A stretch of DNA of 64,000 nt from a virus. Position numbers and translations under genes: made by a program. The DNA is taken from positions 64,001-128,000 of IMG/VR virus record IMGVR_UViG_3300031159_000070. One strand, 5' to 3'. Positions within the stretch are counted from its first letter, which is position 1, and each line of letters starts with the position of its first letter. The notes below the pieces were generated by a model. It made no database searches, was not told the DNA's origin, and worked only from the letters and a program-made list of their open reading frames with translations. Of the stretch, positions 22,452 to 29,130 are shown one piece after another.

Positions 22452-25400
22452 ATGCCGGATACTCGCCTCGACGAGCTCGTCAAGCACCGCATCGGGCTTG
22501 AGAGATACCAGACGAGCATTTTGCGCCAGGTCATCCCTGTGCTGCACGACGCTGAACAGGATCTCGTGCAGATCATTCGCGAGAAGCTGTTCGATCCGCG
22601 TCTTACGCTGTCGGAGGCCCGTCGCCTCGAGACCACGCTGCGCATGGTGCGCAAAGCGCAGCTCGAGGCCTACGAAGTCATCTTCAAGCGACTGTGGAGC
22701 GAGTACCGCGGTCTGTCCGCCCATGAGGCAGACTGGGCGAAAAGCTACTATCGCGATCTGTTCGCCGTCCAGCACAGCATCGAGGTGCCTTCGGCATCCA
22801 TGCTTGTCGCCGCGGCTTTGGAGCGGCCGATGTCCGGCCGCCATCTCAAGGCCTGGGCCGACAAAATGACCGCCGAGCACATTGCCGAGGTCGAGCGGCA
22901 GATCAGGCTTGGCGTCATTGAAGGCGAGTCCATCGATCAGATGGTGCGCCGGCTCCGTGGCACCGAGGCCTTCCGGTTTCGCGATGGCGTGACGGCAAAG
23001 CAAAGGCGCAGTCTCGAGGCTCTGGTCCGCACGTCCGTCAACCACATCACGAACGCAGCGCATCTGAGCTTTCTGCAGCAGAACCCCGAGGTCTTCAAGA
23101 AAGTCCAGTTCGTTGCGGTGCTCGACAACCGCACGACGCCGCGCTGCCGGTCGCTCTCAGGCCAGATCTTCGACGTCGATAAGGCGCCCGTCCCTCCCTT
23201 GCACGTCAACTGCCGTTCGACGCTGGTCGGGCTGCCGACGGCGCCGGACGGCACACCGGCTGCTGAGCCGCTGGCCGATGTCTCATACGAGGAATGGCTT
23301 CGCGAGCAGCCGGTTGCGGTCCAGGAAGATGTGCTGGGCGTCGCCAAGGCCAAGCTCTTCCGCATCGGCGATCTCAAGCTCGATCGCTTTGTCGACCACA
23401 CCGGCAAGGAGCTGACCCTCGATCAGCTGAAGCGTCAGGAGCGTGCCGCCTGGGAGCGTACGTTTCTGACCGCCGAAGATCGCCGCGCAATGTCCGTCAT
23501 CCGACGCGTCAACAGCCTCGTCAACCGCGCGCCAGAGGACCTGAGGCCGCTGGCAGAGATCGGTCAGCGCGCCTGGCAGTTCCTGCGCTTTCATTCCAGT
23601 CAGTGGCTCGAGGCTGTCGCGACCCAATGGAGCCGGCCGGTTGATCCTGAGCTCGTCAGCCTCGTGTTCCTGCTCGATTTCTTCGATGGGCCGGTAACCG
23701 TCCAGCTCTACCGCTCATCGGCGTTCTGGCGCTCGATCATCCGCCGGGGATTGCGGCCGCGGCCGGCTCTTGTCTACCCTCATACCCGCATGCCGCGCGG
23801 GCTCATCGTGCATCCGACCGTGCGGCGTGTGCGCGGCGAGCTGTTCCCGCCGCCAGGTCGCTCACGCTCTCCGGTGCCCGTCGGTCCACGGCCGCGGCCG
23901 GGCGAAGGCATCATCATCGACATCGATCCGACCCGTCCACCGCAGCCACCGACACCCAGGCCGATCGTTCCGCCCCGCCGGCCTGACAGCATCATTATCC
24001 CTCCGGGCCGCAGAGGGCCTGCAACACGACGGCCGCCTGCCGACATGCCGGTGCCACCACCGCGCGCGCCGGTGCCGACGGAGCGCCTGCCGCACGTCAT
24101 GCGCGTCATCCCCGACAAGGGCGCCGAGGCGATCATCCCGAAGATCGCCGATGACGTGCAGTCGCTGCCGCCGCCGAGCCCGGTGCGCGTTCTGCCCTCG
24201 CCACAGCCAAGCCAGCTGCCGGCAAGAGTTCCGGCGCTCACCAACAATCTTCCGGCACCCAAGAATCCGCTGCGCATCACGGTGCCTGAGCTCGAGGCCG
24301 AGCTCGATCGTCTGCTGCCCAAGGAAGGCGCTCGCTTCAATGTCGAGGATGCGTTGCGCAATCTCTGGAACGCGTTCAAGCAGCGCGGGCACGATGGCTT
24401 CGAGATCCTCGACAGCCAAGGCGTGCCGCGGGTCAGGATCGGCATCAACGAGGATCAGCTCACCACGTTTCTCGACCGCTGGCGCGCGGCGCGTGCCGCC
24501 TTCGACCAAGCTCAGCGCCCGCTGCTGCCGGCTCCACCCGCACGTCCTGCGTTGCCCGGGGCAGCACGTGTCGCCGATCGGATCGAGGTGCGGCCGGGTG
24601 CGCAGGCGCCGAATGTCATTCATCTGCCCTATCGCCCGCCACCGCACCCATTGCCGCCCCACGGCGTACCAGGCGATCTTGCGGCTGTGGCCAAGAACCA
24701 GCTTGGCAATGGTATCAGAGCCATCGAGGATCTGCCCAAGCCACGCGCGCGTCGCCGCGTGCCGCTTGCGCCCCGCATTGCCGCGCGCCGCGCGCGCGAG
24801 GCAGAGGCGCGCCGGCTTGTCGCCGAACAGCAGATCCGCGATCTGCTTGCCGAGCTCAATGAGATCAACGCCGGGCTGGAAGGCCTGCGTCCGATCTCAC
24901 GCCAGCTGCAGGCGCGTGCCGACGTGCTGCAACGACTCACCTTGCAGAACAGGCTCGAAACGGACGTCACGGTCTATCGCCCCGTCCGCTGGGCGAACTT
25001 CGCCGAGCGTATGGGCCCGTCTCCGGCGCGACTCGATAAGGTCATCTTCGAGTCTCCGTCGTTCCTGAGCGGCACCGGGAACGAGATCACTGCCTTCGAG
25101 GCAGGTGCTCGCTTCGGCAAAGGGCCGCTTGTCGTCATGCGCATCAACCTCAAGAAGGGCGACGTCGCCCTGGCAGGCAACCGTGAGGCGCATGAGCTGG
25201 TGCTGCCGGCAGGCTCCCGCCTCAAGGTGACGGCGGTGCGCCGCATGCGCGCTTCCGAGATTCCGGCCGATCTGCGCAATCTCTACCCGCAGAACCAGGA
25301 GTTCTGGCTGGCTGACATCGAGATGGTGCGGCCAGGAGATCCGGTCGACCGTGCCATCACGGCCGCCCGCACGACCCAGCAGCGTTACGTCGACCGCATG

Positions 25401-28400
25401 CTGCGCACGCCGCTCGACAACGAGGCCGAGCAGGCCATGCGGCGCACGCCATACGCTCCGTTCCGTCAGGTGGGTGAAGGCGTTGACGAGTGGCCGGTCT
25501 ACGATCCGTCGTCCGGCGAGATGCTGGTCGGTCCGCCGAAAGCCCATCCCATCATTGTCCTTGGCCGCGAGCAGCGTGCGATCGATCCGACGGATGCGGC
25601 ATCGGCTCCGCTGTTCCGTCGGGCGCTGGGCACGCTCATCAATCGGTCCGGCCGTGCTCAGCCGTTGACGAATGAGATCGCCAAAGAGGCTGAGGAGATC
25701 GGCAATCGCTACGTCAAAGGCTTTTCTCTCGAGCGGTTCCTGCGCCGGCTCGATGCCGGCAATCTCTCGAAAGCGGATCGCTTTCTGCCTGAGCCGCGCG
25801 CCGACATCGTGCGCAAGGTGCGCGAGCTGATCGATGTCGATATGGAGCAATTCGGCGATGCCGCCGGGCCGCTCGGGCATGCGCTGCTGAAGAAGGATCC
25901 GGTGGCGTTCGCGCGCATGGTCTCGCAGCTGTCGGACGCGCGCATGAGCCAATACTTCCTCGACCGCGGCTATGATGCGACGCGCGCCGCAGTGGAGGGC
26001 GCGGAGCTCCAGCGTGGTGCCCGGCTGTTCGCTGAGCTGGTCGATGGCATCACCAAGGGCAAGGCGCGCGTCAAGTTCTACGACCTCGCCAACGTGGATG
26101 GAGCGCTCAGAACCTATCGTGGCAGAGAGCATCTGGCGCAGGCCTTTGAGGCTTGGTTCGCGCTGGAGTACAGCCCGAACCCGACCTGGCGCCGGATGAT
26201 CGATCACATGATGCCTGGGCTGGACGAGGTGATGCGTCGGGTGCTGAGGGCGCGCTCGCGCGAGGCGTTCCCGGACGTGTGGGCGCCGACGCTGCGCATG
26301 GCCCACAACCGGCGCATCGTGGCCGATCCGCGCGCCATCGATGTCGATCGTCTGACGTTTGAGCTGGAGGCGCCACCGGCCAGCATTGCCGCCGGCATAC
26401 GCGAGAGCGTGCGGCAGCGGTTCTATGACTACCTCGAGGGCGAAGGGTCGCTCGCCAAGCGCGTTCACAACCAGATCGCCAAGGACCTCGGTATCTCGCG
26501 GCAGGATGTCGAGGTGCTGATCCGTGAAGCGCAGCGCGCGGGCTGGGTCAGGGCTCAGGGTCGCGGCTTCCGCGTGGTGCCGGCCGACAGGCGTCCGCCG
26601 CGCCCCGTCGGCACGCCGGCCATCTCCCCGACGCAGCATCAGCGCGACCTATTCTACGACTATCTGGAAGGCAAGACCGGCGGCTCGGAGAAATCTCTCG
26701 GCTCGCTGAGCCAGGCTGCCTTGCGCGATCTGCAGCGCGAGATCGGCGCGACGCCGATACAGATGAGCCGCCTGACGTTTGAAGCGCAAGAGGTGGGCTG
26801 GCTCAAGCGCGATGCGCGCGGACAGCTCAGGCGCACATGGACCCGCGGTCTGGAGCGGACTGACAAGGCACCGCCGCCGCGGCCAAAGTCGCAAGATATC
26901 GAGCGGATCGAGGGGACACTTGGCACGCCTGCTGGTAGGATCGAACCGGCAGAGGCGCCGAAGCGACGGCGAGGTGACGATGGCGACTTTGGCGGAACTG
27001 GAGGCGCGGGAGAAGGACCTGCTGGGCCGGGCCCCCAAGGCGGAGGACTATCCGAACCCGGAGGCCTTCGCGGAAGCGAGAGCGAGCTGGATCCGAACAT
27101 ACGGGCCAGCGCTGAGGATCCTCCGCTCAGAAATCTCCCGACGCAGATCACAGTCCCGGGCCGCGGCAAGGTCACGTTCGGGCCGCTGAAGCAGGCGCGG
27201 CAAGCGGCAATCGACTACATGCGCGACGCGGGTCTGCCTTACAACCCGCCGCGCACCTACGTGAAAGTCGATCCGGCGCGTGCCAGGCGCATCGCCGAAG
27301 CCTATGAGGCGATGCCGCACAATCCCAACGATCCCGAGGTGAAGGCCGCCTTCAAGGCGATGATCGAGGAGACTCTGGCTCAGTATCAGTACATCAAGAA
27401 GACCGGTCTCAAGATCGAGATGATGGACCTCGATCAGCCCGACCCCTATGCCGCTTCGCCGCGGCTCGCTCATCTCGACGTCATCGAGAACAACCACCTC
27501 TGGGTCTATCCGACGGACGCCGGCTTCGGATCGAATGCCGATTTCGATGTCAGCGACAATCCGCTGATGCAGTTCACCGATGAGTACCTGAACGGCAAGC
27601 GCCTCAGGGCAAATGACGTGTTCCGCATCGTCCATGACTACTTCGGCCACTTCAAAGAGGGCGTCGGTTTCCGTGCAGATGGCGAGGAGAACGCGTGGCG
27701 CTCGCACAGCGCCATGTACTCGCCGCTCGCCCGGCGAGCGATGACGACGGAGACGCGCGGACAGAACTCCTGGGTCAACTTTGGCCCGCACGGTGAGAAG
27801 AACCGCACGGCCAAGGCCGAAGATACGATCTTCGCCGACCAGAAAACGGGCCTGCTCCCGCAATGGGTTGTTGACGAAGGCGCAGGCGATCCGCCGGACG
27901 TGACGCCCCCTGCGCAACCAGAGCCGACCCGAAACATTCTCGATCGGGCGCATCTCACAGAGCTTGTCCAGCGCATCGTCTCTGAAATGCGTGGTGTTCC
28001 GCTCGATCGCATCGCCCATCAGCGCCTCCCGGTGCGCACCGAGTCCGAACAGACGATGGTGAATGAGGTCTGGCGCCACGCCACGCTGTCGCCAGAGATC
28101 GAAAAGGTGATTTCAGGTGCCGAGTCCATCACGCTCTCTGAGCCGACCGACGGGCCCACCTACTACGATCCTGTGACGGGAACGCTTGAGATCGGCCGGC
28201 GCAATCCTTCGGCGCCTCAGGACCGGGTCTGGATCCGCCACGAGTTCGGCCACCACCTCGACCTGCCGATGACGCCGGACGGAACGGTGGTGCAGTATTC
28301 GGCCGCGCCAGAGTTCGGCCTGGCCAAAGCGATGCAGGCCGATCTCGAGCAGCTGGCGCGCAGCTACGCGCCTGATGCGAAGGTCGTCCTGCGTGCCGAG

Positions 28401-28844
28401 TCCGCGCTGCAGCGGTTCAAGGATCGTTACGGGATCGATCTTGCGAAAAACGTCTCTGATATTGGGCTTGCGCATCGCATGGCTGAATACGCGTTGACCG
28501 GCAATGCGGCGTTCCTGAAGCTGGTTGACCAGGCCGTGCGGACTGGTGCGATCAGAGACGCCAAGATCGCCAGCGAGTTCATGGTCTATTCAGACTTGAC
28601 GGCTGCGGTGACAAAGCTCAAGCTTGGCACCGGCCATCCTGAGACGTACTTCGCCGGTGGATTTGATATCGGCGAGGGTTACACGAGTCGTCATGCCAAT
28701 GAGGCATTCGCCAACTGGTTCGCGCTGCATTCGAGCGATGTGACCGGTTGGCGCCTGCTTATGCAGCAGTATTTCCCGCGCGTCGTGGAGTCCAATGCGT
28801 CGATCCTGGATCGCATGGGAGCCGATGCGCATGGCGAACAGTGA
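22452..28844 (+). CDS. MuF (SPP1 gp7-like) minor head protein fused to ART-like, winged-HTH and zincin domains
   Basis: MuF motif AVLDNRTTPRC...PPLHVNCRS; ART-like VYR/FLSGT/HELVL; FRIVHDYFGH...TTETRGQNS; HEFGH...NEAFA. Confidence 0.9.
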   Translation: MPDTRLDELVKHRIGLERYQTSILRQVIPVLHDAEQDLVQIIREKLFDPRLTLSEARRLETTLRMVRKAQLEAYEVIFKRLWSEYRGLSAHEADWAKSYYRDLFAVQHSIEVPSASMLVAAALERPMSGRHLKAWADKMTAEHIAEVERQIRLGVIEGESIDQMVRRLRGTEAFRFRDGVTAKQRRSLEALVRTSVNHITNAAHLSFLQQNPEVFKKVQFVAVLDNRTTPRCRSLSGQIFDVDKAPVPPLHVNCRSTLVGLPTAPDGTPAAEPLADVSYEEWLREQPVAVQEDVLGVAKAKLFRIGDLKLDRFVDHTGKELTLDQLKRQERAAWERTFLTAEDRRAMSVIRRVNSLVNRAPEDLRPLAEIGQRAWQFLRFHSSQWLEAVATQWSRPVDPELVSLVFLLDFFDGPVTVQLYRSSAFWRSIIRRGLRPRPALVYPHTRMPRGLIVHPTVRRVRGELFPPPGRSRSPVPVGPRPRPGEGIIIDIDPTRPPQPPTPRPIVPPRRPDSIIIPPGRRGPATRRPPADMPVPPPRAPVPTERLPHVMRVIPDKGAEAIIPKIADDVQSLPPPSPVRVLPSPQPSQLPARVPALTNNLPAPKNPLRITVPELEAELDRLLPKEGARFNVEDALRNLWNAFKQRGHDGFEILDSQGVPRVRIGINEDQLTTFLDRWRAARAAFDQAQRPLLPAPPARPALPGAARVADRIEVRPGAQAPNVIHLPYRPPPHPLPPHGVPGDLAAVAKNQLGNGIRAIEDLPKPRARRRVPLAPRIAARRAREAEARRLVAEQQIRDLLAELNEINAGLEGLRPISRQLQARADVLQRLTLQNRLETDVTVYRPVRWANFAERMGPSPARLDKVIFESPSFLSGTGNEITAFEAGARFGKGPLVVMRINLKKGDVALAGNREAHELVLPAGSRLKVTAVRRMRASEIPADLRNLYPQNQEFWLADIEMVRPGDPVDRAITAARTTQQRYVDRMLRTPLDNEAEQAMRRTPYAPFRQVGEGVDEWPVYDPSSGEMLVGPPKAHPIIVLGREQRAIDPTDAASAPLFRRALGTLINRSGRAQPLTNEIAKEAEEIGNRYVKGFSLERFLRRLDAGNLSKADRFLPEPRADIVRKVRELIDVDMEQFGDAAGPLGHALLKKDPVAFARMVSQLSDARMSQYFLDRGYDATRAAVEGAELQRGARLFAELVDGITKGKARVKFYDLANVDGALRTYRGREHLAQAFEAWFALEYSPNPTWRRMIDHMMPGLDEVMRRVLRARSREAFPDVWAPTLRMAHNRRIVADPRAIDVDRLTFELEAPPASIAAGIRESVRQRFYDYLEGEGSLAKRVHNQIAKDLGISRQDVEVLIREAQRAGWVRAQGRGFRVVPADRRPPRPVGTPAISPTQHQRDLFYDYLEGKTGGSEKSLGSLSQAALRDLQREIGATPIQMSRLTFEAQEVGWLKRDARGQLRRTWTRGLERTDKAPPPRPKSQDIERIEGTLGTPAGRIEPAEAPKRRRGDDGDFGGTGGAGEGPAGPGPQGGGLSEPGGLRGSESELDPNIRASAEDPPLRNLPTQITVPGRGKVTFGPLKQARQAAIDYMRDAGLPYNPPRTYVKVDPARARRIAEAYEAMPHNPNDPEVKAAFKAMIEETLAQYQYIKKTGLKIEMMDLDQPDPYAASPRLAHLDVIENNHLWVYPTDAGFGSNADFDVSDNPLMQFTDEYLNGKRLRANDVFRIVHDYFGHFKEGVGFRADGEENAWRSHSAMYSPLARRAMTTETRGQNSWVNFGPHGEKNRTAKAEDTIFADQKTGLLPQWVVDEGAGDPPDVTPPAQPEPTRNILDRAHLTELVQRIVSEMRGVPLDRIAHQRLPVRTESEQTMVNEVWRHATLSPEIEKVISGAESITLSEPTDGPTYYDPVTGTLEIGRRNPSAPQDRVWIRHEFGHHLDLPMTPDGTVVQYSAAPEFGLAKAMQADLEQLARSYAPDAKVVLRAESALQRFKDRYGIDLAKNVSDIGLAHRMAEYALTGNAAFLKLVDQAVRTGAIRDAKIASEFMVYSDLTAAVTKLKLGTGHPETYFAGGFDIGEGYTSRHANEAFANWFALHSSDVTGWRLLMQQYFPRVVESNASILDRMGADAHGEQ
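26980..27189 (+). CDS. nested +1-frame small protein inside the MuF gene
   Basis: GAGGTG RBS; MATLAELEAREKDLLGRAPKAEDYPNPEAFAEARASWIRTYGPALRILRSEI...; overlies a Gly/Pro linker of MuF. Confidence 0.55.
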   Translation: MATLAELEAREKDLLGRAPKAEDYPNPEAFAEARASWIRTYGPALRILRSEISRRRSQSRAAARSRSGR

Positions 28845-29130
28845 GCTCACACCTGCTGCCATCAGTGTCCTGGCCGATGAACCATTTGCCAAGCGGATCG
28901 AGGACAACGGGCGGGTGCTGTCCGTTGATCTCTTCTTCGATGGCCCAGAATGCAAGGCGCGGCTCAAAGCCGGCAAGATCGACATCGTCTTGAGCGCCGG
29001 CGGCGCGGAGCGGCTGTCGCACGTGCTTTATGAGGCGGCGCGCACGGCAGAGCGCAAGATGCACTGGGCCAAAGTTCGCGGGCTTTCGCCGGCGCCTACC
29101 GCGAGTGCGCAAGCCGATCTTTTTGGTTGA
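28831..29130 (+). CDS. hypothetical protein
   Basis: Overlaps the MuF stop. Confidence 0.6.
   Translation: MANSELTPAAISVLADEPFAKRIEDNGRVLSVDLFFDGPECKARLKAGKIDIVLSAGGAERLSHVLYEAARTAERKMHWAKVRGLSPAPTASAQADLFG

Follow-up and report, generated by a model that had tools for sequence, protein, structure and literature searches.

A candidate gene embedded in a MuF polyvalent protein gene and the predicted binding of its product to the adjacent HDxxxH domain

Open reading frames (ORFs) nested in long genes are discarded by gene callers and curators. Rz1 lies in the +1 frame of Rz. Small helical proteins that cover a conserved site of their partner, and whose genes lie just 5' of the partner gene and overlap its start, are known from type II toxin-antitoxin and colicin-immunity pairs. 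In this work, we analyzed a candidate gene of 69 codons that lies in the +1 frame within the gene of a giant MuF-family head protein, directly 5' of a domain that carries the motif HDYFGH (the HDxxxH domain). The locus belongs to a stretch of 64,000 nucleotides, hereafter the window, which corresponds to positions 64001-128000 of the provirus record IMGVR_UViG_3300031159_000070 (137,047 bases; CheckV completeness estimate, 95) and has a GC content of 55-68%.

Several described systems come close to this arrangement. The lambda Rz/Rz1 spanins are a case of a small gene embedded in a larger phage gene, with two products that bind each other (PMC5295617, PMC6139136). In MuF polymorphic toxins, a short immunity ORF directly follows the muf gene (Jamet et al. 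2017, PMC5576092), and phage polyvalent proteins often join MuF and a zincin peptidase to several unrelated effector-type domains (Iyer et al. 2017, PMC5512222). Small viruses have overprinted genes, in which one DNA stretch encodes two proteins and synonymous sites are constrained (PMC8227390, PMC6195259). Our comparative sequence analysis indicates that the ORF studied here is very probably a real +1-frame protein-coding gene, lodged in an inter-domain linker of the MuF polyvalent protein. Structure models make it reasonably likely that the product binds the adjacent HDxxxH domain. Our best explanation as a whole, which we hold with a little less confidence but still consider probable, is that of an embedded and selected gene that moves with the domain and whose product binds it, with a cognate inhibitor or safety cap as the likeliest role.

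Conservation and selection of the +1 frame

The original prediction, made from the sequence of the window, had described a GAGGTG site and an ATG at 26980 that open a 69-residue ORF in the +1 frame of a MuF gene, a peptide that reads as helical, and a low-complexity linker in the MuF frame over the same bases. Each of these points was borne out, down to the coordinates (Table 1). The host protein is a MuF protein by its Pfam match and by that of its N terminus to phrog_241 (head morphogenesis; E 1.5e-100), and translation of the MuF frame over the ORF yields the low-complexity sequence DGDFGGTGGAGEGPAGPGPQGGGLSEPGGLRGSESEL. The AlphaFold2 model of the 69-residue protein has a predicted local distance difference test (pLDDT) score of 93.7, with a helix at residues 4-16, a loop bearing the KP..E.Y motif, and a long helix at residues 27-67; the embedded product thus models as a small helix-loop-helix (helical hairpin) protein. 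The 3' end of the ORF covers the first residues of the HDYFGH domain, whose conserved part starts at about 27100-27135.

The length of the ORF alone is no proof of a gene, since the MuF gene (65% GC) contains 14 same-strand alternate-frame stop-free stretches of at least 69 codons (7 + 7). Composition sets the region apart: GC content at third codon positions (GC3) in the MuF frame is 0.59-0.64 at 26802-27160, the lowest in a gene with a mean of 0.77, and it is 0.76 at the third position of the embedded frame. A hidden Markov model (HMM) built from 10 database proteins only also recognized the window ORF (E 1.2e-4, 20.4 bits), the sole significant match among the six-frame segments of the window. 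The family to which these proteins belong is defined by the pattern L..xKPxRExF..EEFEEA.GYW...GRIL, with an invariant Pro, a Glu-Ala pair, an aromatic pattern, and a helix-loop-helix of about 45 residues. The window peptide qualifies as a member, and it retains P19, Y24, F29, E32, A33, and W37.

Residues 1400-1800 of the MuF frame were used as the query of a domain-led search, which returned 17 viral and 2 genome loci. Their HDYFGH domains are 52-66% identical to that of the window (75% in L018, a short, 5'-truncated match), and no sequence is shared 5' of the domain. Translation of the three forward frames 5' of the domain revealed, in the same place in each of L004, L014, and L019, an ATG-started +1 ORF of 49-70 codons with a similar product, a GGAG-type site 8-9 bases 5' of the ATG, and an alternate-frame stop 0-4 codons before it. 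Together with 13 loci reached through peptide alignments (L021, L025-L027, and L030-L038), these three, found through the domain alone, make 16 loci besides the window in which the +1-frame peptide (KPxRExF..EEFEEA.GYW) stands directly 5' of the same domain, over a GC range of 0.47-0.69. L027 and L030 come from metagenomes, and L021 has 49% GC. Copies in GenBank phages include a clear one in MW202675.1 and a divergent one in Synechococcus phage MinM2, where the ATG follows AGGAGG; Planktothrix phages with the same tblastn match likewise have a divergent copy. Neither the MW202675.1 nor the MinM2 record annotates the ORF, nor does any other of the GenBank phages examined.

In the peptide-led loci, the host long ORF ranges from 838 to over 2000 codons; L030 is the exception. 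At L030:2420-2632, the long frame has stops 5', and the domain gene begins about 17 codons before the embedded ATG, so that the overlap is with the domain's own leader and not with a fused upstream polyprotein. This arrangement weakens an origin of the overlap that we had considered, in which the reading of an upstream polyprotein extended across a small gene that had stood free.

An HMM scan in six frames, which covered all loci and in which distinct loci, the window included, were counted, found the peptide together with the domain in 17, the domain without the peptide in 13 (L002, L003, L005-L013, L015, and L020), and the peptide without the domain in 1 (L028); L016-L018, cut at the 5' end, stand outside this count. 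Alternate-frame stops in close relatives would have spoken against a gene, and none interrupts the ORF in the peptide loci: both frames are open in 17 of 17, and 11 of the 17 have stops in the third frame within the 30-codon core. The start is conserved as well. The ATG lies 8-18 codons before the invariant Pro in all 17 listed loci (in L031, the start is a GTG after AAGGAG), and a Shine-Dalgarno-like tetramer (GGAG, GAGG, or AGGA) occurs at -17 to -4 in 15 of 17, compared to 11.5% of positions in the same DNA.

Selection was compared among frames over the 30 aligned codons of the core, in 16 unique sequences. Mean pairwise identity and BLOSUM62 score per site are highest in the embedded frame (43.7% and 2.21), followed by the MuF frame (32.3% and 1.11) and the third frame (30.5% and 0.85), and, of the codon positions, the embedded third position has the least nucleotide identity (0.455, compared to 0.573 at the MuF third position). 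This similarity of the alternate frame is in part ascertained, since 13 of the 16 additional loci were found through the peptide.

A test of synonymous sites in close pairs, which are homologous over their whole length, is free of this bias. In four pairs (L025-L026, L021-L027, L027-L032, and L037-L038), the core of 30 codons was compared with 600 bases of the domain. Differences in the core number 14, 12, and 37 at the first, second, and third positions of the embedded frame (of 120 each); in the domain, the corresponding MuF positions, second, third, and first, show 50, 403, and 93 (of about 799 each). MuF third positions are thus changed at 12 of 120 sites (10%) in the overlap versus 403 of 799 (50%) in the domain (Fisher p = 9e-19), while changes at MuF first positions are three times more frequent in the overlap than in the domain (p = 3e-7). 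Sliding windows of 30 codons across 1100-1500 aligned codons show the whole-gene minimum of MuF third-position divergence exactly at the embedded ORF in two pairs (L021-L027 and L037-L038); in L025-L026, the ORF coincides with the second lowest window. An RNA or DNA element would not be expected to concentrate the changes at a single codon position of the alternate frame. The original prediction that the alternate frame is the one under selection is therefore upheld in the relatives, both by the reduced divergence at MuF third positions and by the concentration of changes at the third position of the embedded frame.

The ORF had also been proposed to travel with the HDYFGH domain, and the contexts of the 17 loci agree with this. 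Single-linkage grouping of the 200 residues encoded 5' of the embedded ORF (BLASTP E <= 1e-5) yields 13 unrelated groups, and the domain on the 3' side is always the same. In a maximum-likelihood tree of 31 domain sequences, peptide-bearing rows are present in most deep branches; the presence/absence label changes 7 times on this tree (5-7 in bootstraps), compared to a mean of 10.6 after shuffling, with 10 of 500 shuffles as low. This pattern fits an old association of peptide and domain with several losses, the order of events not being proven. Peptide subtypes (..AFF.HR.. and ..YGYWMTRQGQSIP..) track the clades of the domain, and the inheritance of the gene as one module with the HDxxxH domain is supported by these sequence comparisons.

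Predicted partner and proposed role

The HDxxxH domain is 50-67% identical in 23 other loci, with about 43 residues invariant among 24 sequences. It has no relative in Pfam or NCBIfam, and no PDB sequence match reaches E 0.1. Its model likewise returned nothing at E <= 1e-3 in a Foldseek search of the PDB, and the best VIA-align wide scores (Z 2.6, to minigluzincin zymogens and SPRTN) are far below a meaningful level. Its neighbors in BFVD are phage polyvalent proteins with ART-PolyVal, LPD, and head-morphogenesis labels. The domain may represent an undescribed enzyme fold of phage polyvalent proteins. It may also already be among the LPD1-40 of Iyer et al. (PMC5512222). One guess is that HDxxxH represents a variant form of the HExxxH peptidase motif, which the same paper mentions.

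The original prediction had suggested modeling the complex, and this check came out in its favor. Domain and peptide of the window gave an interaction prediction score from aligned errors (ipSAE) of 0.87 (0.84, 0.92, and 0.87 in the individual runs), as opposed to 0.02 at most in three controls, in which the partner (twice) or the domain (once) was replaced by an unrelated one. The partner has a pLDDT of at least 84, and the runs share at least 82% of contacts. Among solved complexes, 58 of 80 reach the tool's mark, as do 2 of 110 mismatched pairs; these counts are only a rough guide here since our own alignments were used. The scores express the confidence of the model itself and do not amount to a measurement. 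The predicted interface lies on the most conserved face of the domain and includes Y117, P121, G142, R176, D180 (of the HD motif), G190, R192, Q222, T243, and A246, all invariant in 24 sequences, and the nearly invariant R122; on the peptide side, it includes residues 14-21 and 31-51.

We propose the following pathway. The small protein would be translated from its own Shine-Dalgarno site and ATG (26971-26982), and the "linker" of the polyprotein would be the other reading of the embedded gene, with selection acting mainly on the embedded frame. Once made, the small protein would bind non-covalently across the invariant cleft of the domain. Its likeliest role would be that of a cognate inhibitor or "safety cap", be it immunity-like or a folding or holding partner, with that of a holding chaperone coming next. 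Being produced from the same late mRNA, it could silence the domain in the producing cell, and we suggest that the cap would be stripped off when the polyprotein unfolds for packaging or ejection. Inhibition of the HDxxxH domain, as distinct from binding, is a tentative proposal to which we give somewhat less than an even chance.

The small protein is not confined to this setting. When 1.84 billion representatives were queried with a profile built from five embedded peptides, 178 matched at E <= 1e-3, 14 of them at E <= 1e-10; most are of 50-100 residues and bear the same motif, and some may be embedded copies picked by gene callers. A second search returned 134 proteins. The proteins of both searches are unnamed or "hypothetical", and none has a Pfam domain. 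The peptide itself has no match in Pfam, PHROGs, or NCBIfam and no usable one in the ESM Atlas. Among 400 sampled genomes of the class of genome G001, two matches were obtained at E <= 0.001, the known L019 locus and one weak in-frame match, and the family was not found in the rest. Four database proteins (P0003, P0007, P0027, and P0028) hold two copies of the module each.

A second +1 ORF of 67 codons, with the motif FLPAPHDHPIYSEG ("PPDHP"), was observed within the same polyprotein gene, about 1.9 kb 5' of the peptide ORF (L025:1084-1287, with the same place in L026, and L030:513-716). It coincides with the other dip of host third-position divergence between L025 and L026 (0.00-0.07, compared to a mean of 0.39), and its profile matches 21 small database proteins. 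Directly before the KPxRExF ORF, with the stop followed by the ATG, it is found both within a polyprotein gene (L014:2696-2890, both ORFs in +1) and free-standing (L028:882-1073), while P0236-P0240 and P0242 are single proteins that combine both modules. The "PPDHP" and KPxRExF small proteins may be partners.

Several observations weigh against our best explanation. The peptide is missing from 13 of the 30 judgeable metagenomic or viral loci with the domain, which speaks against a strict toxin-immunity pair, and it is absent in 3 of 5 close GenBank phages and in both distant actinophage homologs. The expectation that homologs keep an alternate-frame ORF 5' of the domain thus holds in the 17 loci with both elements and fails in the 13 loci and the 3 close phages. 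The window copy is the most divergent member of the family, at 20.4 bits with the independent HMM, and no close relative was found that offers enough variants for a per-frame selection signal on this copy: the contigs of four public runs over the window are fragmentary and near-identical, and their one difference in the ORF, 27091 A>G, changes both frames (I38V in the embedded frame, D>G in MuF). The one RNA run among the public runs contained a 0.10 share of the sampled words. Interface residues are no more conserved in domains with the peptide (majority fraction, 0.70) than in those without (0.73). Lastly, the module occurs apart from the domain. In L028, it is a stand-alone gene of 99 codons that is flanked by a SAM-synthetase-like and a DUF3293 ORF and that no long frame overlaps; in P0234 (323 residues), it is in frame at the N terminus, before Kinase-PolyVal (PF18762, E 5.2e-22); in P0241, it follows DUF7178; and P0104, a tape-measure-like protein of 1219 residues, has three in-frame copies near its C-terminal end. 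What the original prediction had described, an immunity or inhibitor gene that travels with an enzymatic domain, stands as regards embedding, selection, co-travel, and predicted binding; immunity or inhibition is a hypothesis, and the loci without the peptide speak against a strict pair.

These separate occurrences also suggest that the module may be a general adaptor. The gene would then be real and its product would not serve the adjacent domain, being an adaptor or chaperone, for instance in packaging, or a partner of the "PPDHP" protein, with a position that is merely historical. Besides the module in L028, P0234, P0241, and P0104, this reading can call on its fusion to or location beside the "PPDHP" protein (P0236-P0240, L014, and L028) and on 16 domain homologs without the peptide. 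Set against it, all 17 polyprotein loci have the peptide directly before this one domain despite 13 upstream contexts, the peptide subtypes track the domain clades, and the complex model is specific, falling from 0.87 to 0.02 when the domain is replaced. We consider the adaptor unlikely, though it is the alternative that survives best.

The peptide could instead be reached by frameshifting, either by +1 slippage, which would give a truncated polyprotein with a helical tail, or by -1 slippage, which would give a free peptide-domain fusion. The window would allow this, as its +1 frame is free of stops from 26776, that is, for 68 codons 5' of the ATG, and in-frame fusions of module and domain do exist (e.g., P0234). 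Across the loci, the picture is different: in 12 of 17, the alternate frame carries a stop 0-9 codons ahead of the ATG, the ATG and its Shine-Dalgarno site are conserved, and there is no conserved slippery heptamer, X_XXY_YYZ being in phase in only 2 of 16 ORFs and at differing places. Taken together, these features make independent initiation far likelier, and we regard frameshifting as very improbable.

Least credible of all is a chance open frame in GC-rich DNA whose conservation derives from the polyprotein frame or from an RNA or DNA element, for while the 14 long alternate-frame stretches of the MuF gene and the lack of a Pfam, PHROG, or NCBIfam match for the peptide would suit it, the ORF is kept in loci of 47-52% GC (L021, L027, L032-L035, and L037) whose third frame abounds in stops, differences gather at the alternate-frame third position and are not even as for an RNA element, the host frame is less conserved than the embedded one, and the 178 profile matches include a stand-alone gene and in-frame fusions.

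Returning to the embedded partner gene as our preferred reading, one may ask how far it extends. It is conceivable, if rather doubtful at present, that the linkers of polyvalent proteins are routinely dual-coding, with cassettes of small partner genes (KPxRExF..EEFEEA, and "PPDHP" in L025, L026, L030, and L014) that would each cap or guide a neighboring effector domain, the cap being stripped at packaging or ejection. Were such linkers routine, phages would possess an inherent switch that times the action of injected enzymes, and recombination could move an effector together with its control gene on one piece of DNA.

Host gene and neighboring features

The coordinates of the ORF, its host gene, and the motifs and domains of the latter are collected in Table 1. 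With MuF, the HDxxxH domain, and an HEFGHH motif within 2130 residues, the host fits the description of a polyvalent protein, that is, several effector-type domains in one phage polypeptide. Residues 1575-1776, the stretch that carries HDYFGH, match only phrog_3170, a family with no assigned function. The HEFGHH motif may mark a zincin peptidase, as judged from the motif itself and from the MPTase domains of polyvalent proteins (Iyer et al. 2017, PMC5512222).

Table 1. Positions in the window of the embedded ORF and of features of its MuF host gene (pTM, predicted template modeling score)
Feature	Position	Strand	Basis
Host gene, 2130-residue MuF-family polyvalent head protein	22452..28844	+	Single frame open throughout (ORF list, translation)
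Phage_Mu_F domain, polyprotein residues 146-258	22887..23225	+	Pfam PF04233, E 3.5e-15
Gly/Pro/Arg-rich low-complexity linker in the MuF frame, about residues 1505-1561; second reading of the embedded gene	26964..27134	+	Translation
Shine-Dalgarno-like GAGGTG, 3 nucleotides 5' of the ATG (GAGG core 5 nucleotides 5')	26971..26976	+	Sequence
Embedded gene (very probable), +1 frame relative to the MuF coding sequence: ATG 26980, 69 codons, TGA 27187-27189	26980..27189	+	Translation
Conserved core of the embedded protein, LLGRAPKAEDYPNPEAFAEARASWIRTYGP, with the family motif KPxRExF..EEFEEA..W	27019..27108	+	Family alignments, frame-specific conservation
HDxxxH ("HDYFGH") domain, 261 residues as modeled	27099..27881	+	AlphaFold2 pLDDT 91.8, pTM 0.91
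HDYFGH motif; H179, D180, G183, and H184 invariant in 24 sequences	27633..27650	+	Alignment
HEFGHH (HExxH-type) motif, C-terminal part of the polyprotein	28239..28256	+	Sequence; no family match in Pfam or NCBIfam

Three further features of the window deserve mention. Just 5' of the linker, at 26349-26800, two (R/L)FYDYLEG repeats are each followed by a weak winged-helix-like match (wHTH-PRTase_assc and HTH_Crp_2; E 0.03-0.1). At 23698-25068, a +1 stretch of 456 stop-free codons covers a Pro-rich part of the MuF gene; the GC3 of the host frame is 0.67-0.81 there, and the stretch looks like an ordinary shadow frame of GC-rich DNA. Directly after the MuF gene, at 28795-29130, an ORF of 111 codons shares the last 50 bases of the gene, the position in which Jamet et al. 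(PMC5576092) put the immunity ORFs of MuF toxins.

Comparison with known systems

A full-text literature search, with supplementary files outside its reach, did not bring up any description of a gene nested within those of MuF or polyvalent proteins. In the text of Jamet et al. 2017 (PMC5576092), the word "embedded" does not occur, nor do "overlapping", "frameshift", "linker", or "low-complexity" in that of Iyer et al. (PMC5512222). Dual-coding linkers lie outside the picture of polyvalent proteins described there. The case presented here is that of an embedded, predicted partner gene inside the linker of a virion polyprotein, tied to one domain. If our reading is correct, a widespread and unnamed family of small proteins (178 representatives) would gain its first context and a testable partner, and low-complexity "linkers" of giant virion proteins could be the shadow of another gene instead of spacers. 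An effector domain and its own binding protein would shuffle between polyproteins as a single stretch of DNA, and the principles of toxin and immunity known from MuF toxins and of embedded partners known from Rz/Rz1 would carry over to virion proteins that are injected. The HDxxxH domain would also be singled out for biochemistry by its confident model, the lack of a solved-structure neighbor in our searches, and its predicted dedicated partner.

The locus resembles the polyvalent proteins of Iyer et al. (PMC5512222) in its host gene, which combines MuF, effector or LPD-type domains, and an HExxH motif. With MuF polymorphic toxins (PMC5576092), it shares an N-terminal MuF, variable effector domains, and a very short ORF of no known family that would be the cognate partner. 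It departs from them in that this ORF is not immediately downstream of the muf gene but inside it, in another frame and upstream of an internal domain, and the toxicity of HDxxxH is hypothetical.

Overprinted viral genes (PMC8227390, PMC6195259) are alike in that two frames are coding and the synonymous sites of the host are constrained. Here, in contrast, we are dealing with a large record (137 kb) of a tailed provirus, not with a virus limited in size. Moreover, we infer that it is the embedded protein that is well folded and widespread, whereas the big host gene provides the disordered, fast-evolving reading; the polyprotein leader over the overlap may be the derived reading.

The arrangement also resembles type II toxin-antitoxin and colicin-immunity pairs, in that a small helical protein is encoded just upstream of its partner, overlaps it, and is predicted to cover its conserved site. 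In the present case, the partner is one domain of a 2130-residue virion protein, many homologous domains have no partner, the small protein has no evident DNA-binding domain, and toxicity is again hypothetical.

The closest parallel in tailed phages may be drawn with Rz/Rz1 (PMC5295617, PMC6139136): in both cases, a small gene lies wholly inside a gene of a tailed phage, in another frame and with its own start, and its product binds, or in the present case is predicted to bind, that of the host gene. The window peptide has neither Cys nor a signal-like N terminus and thus lacks the lipobox Cys of Rz1-type o-spanins, so it is not an o-spanin, and its family also occurs outside overlaps. The host gene differs accordingly, encoding a giant MuF polyvalent head protein in place of a lysis protein, with the embedded ORF covering the linker between two of its domains.

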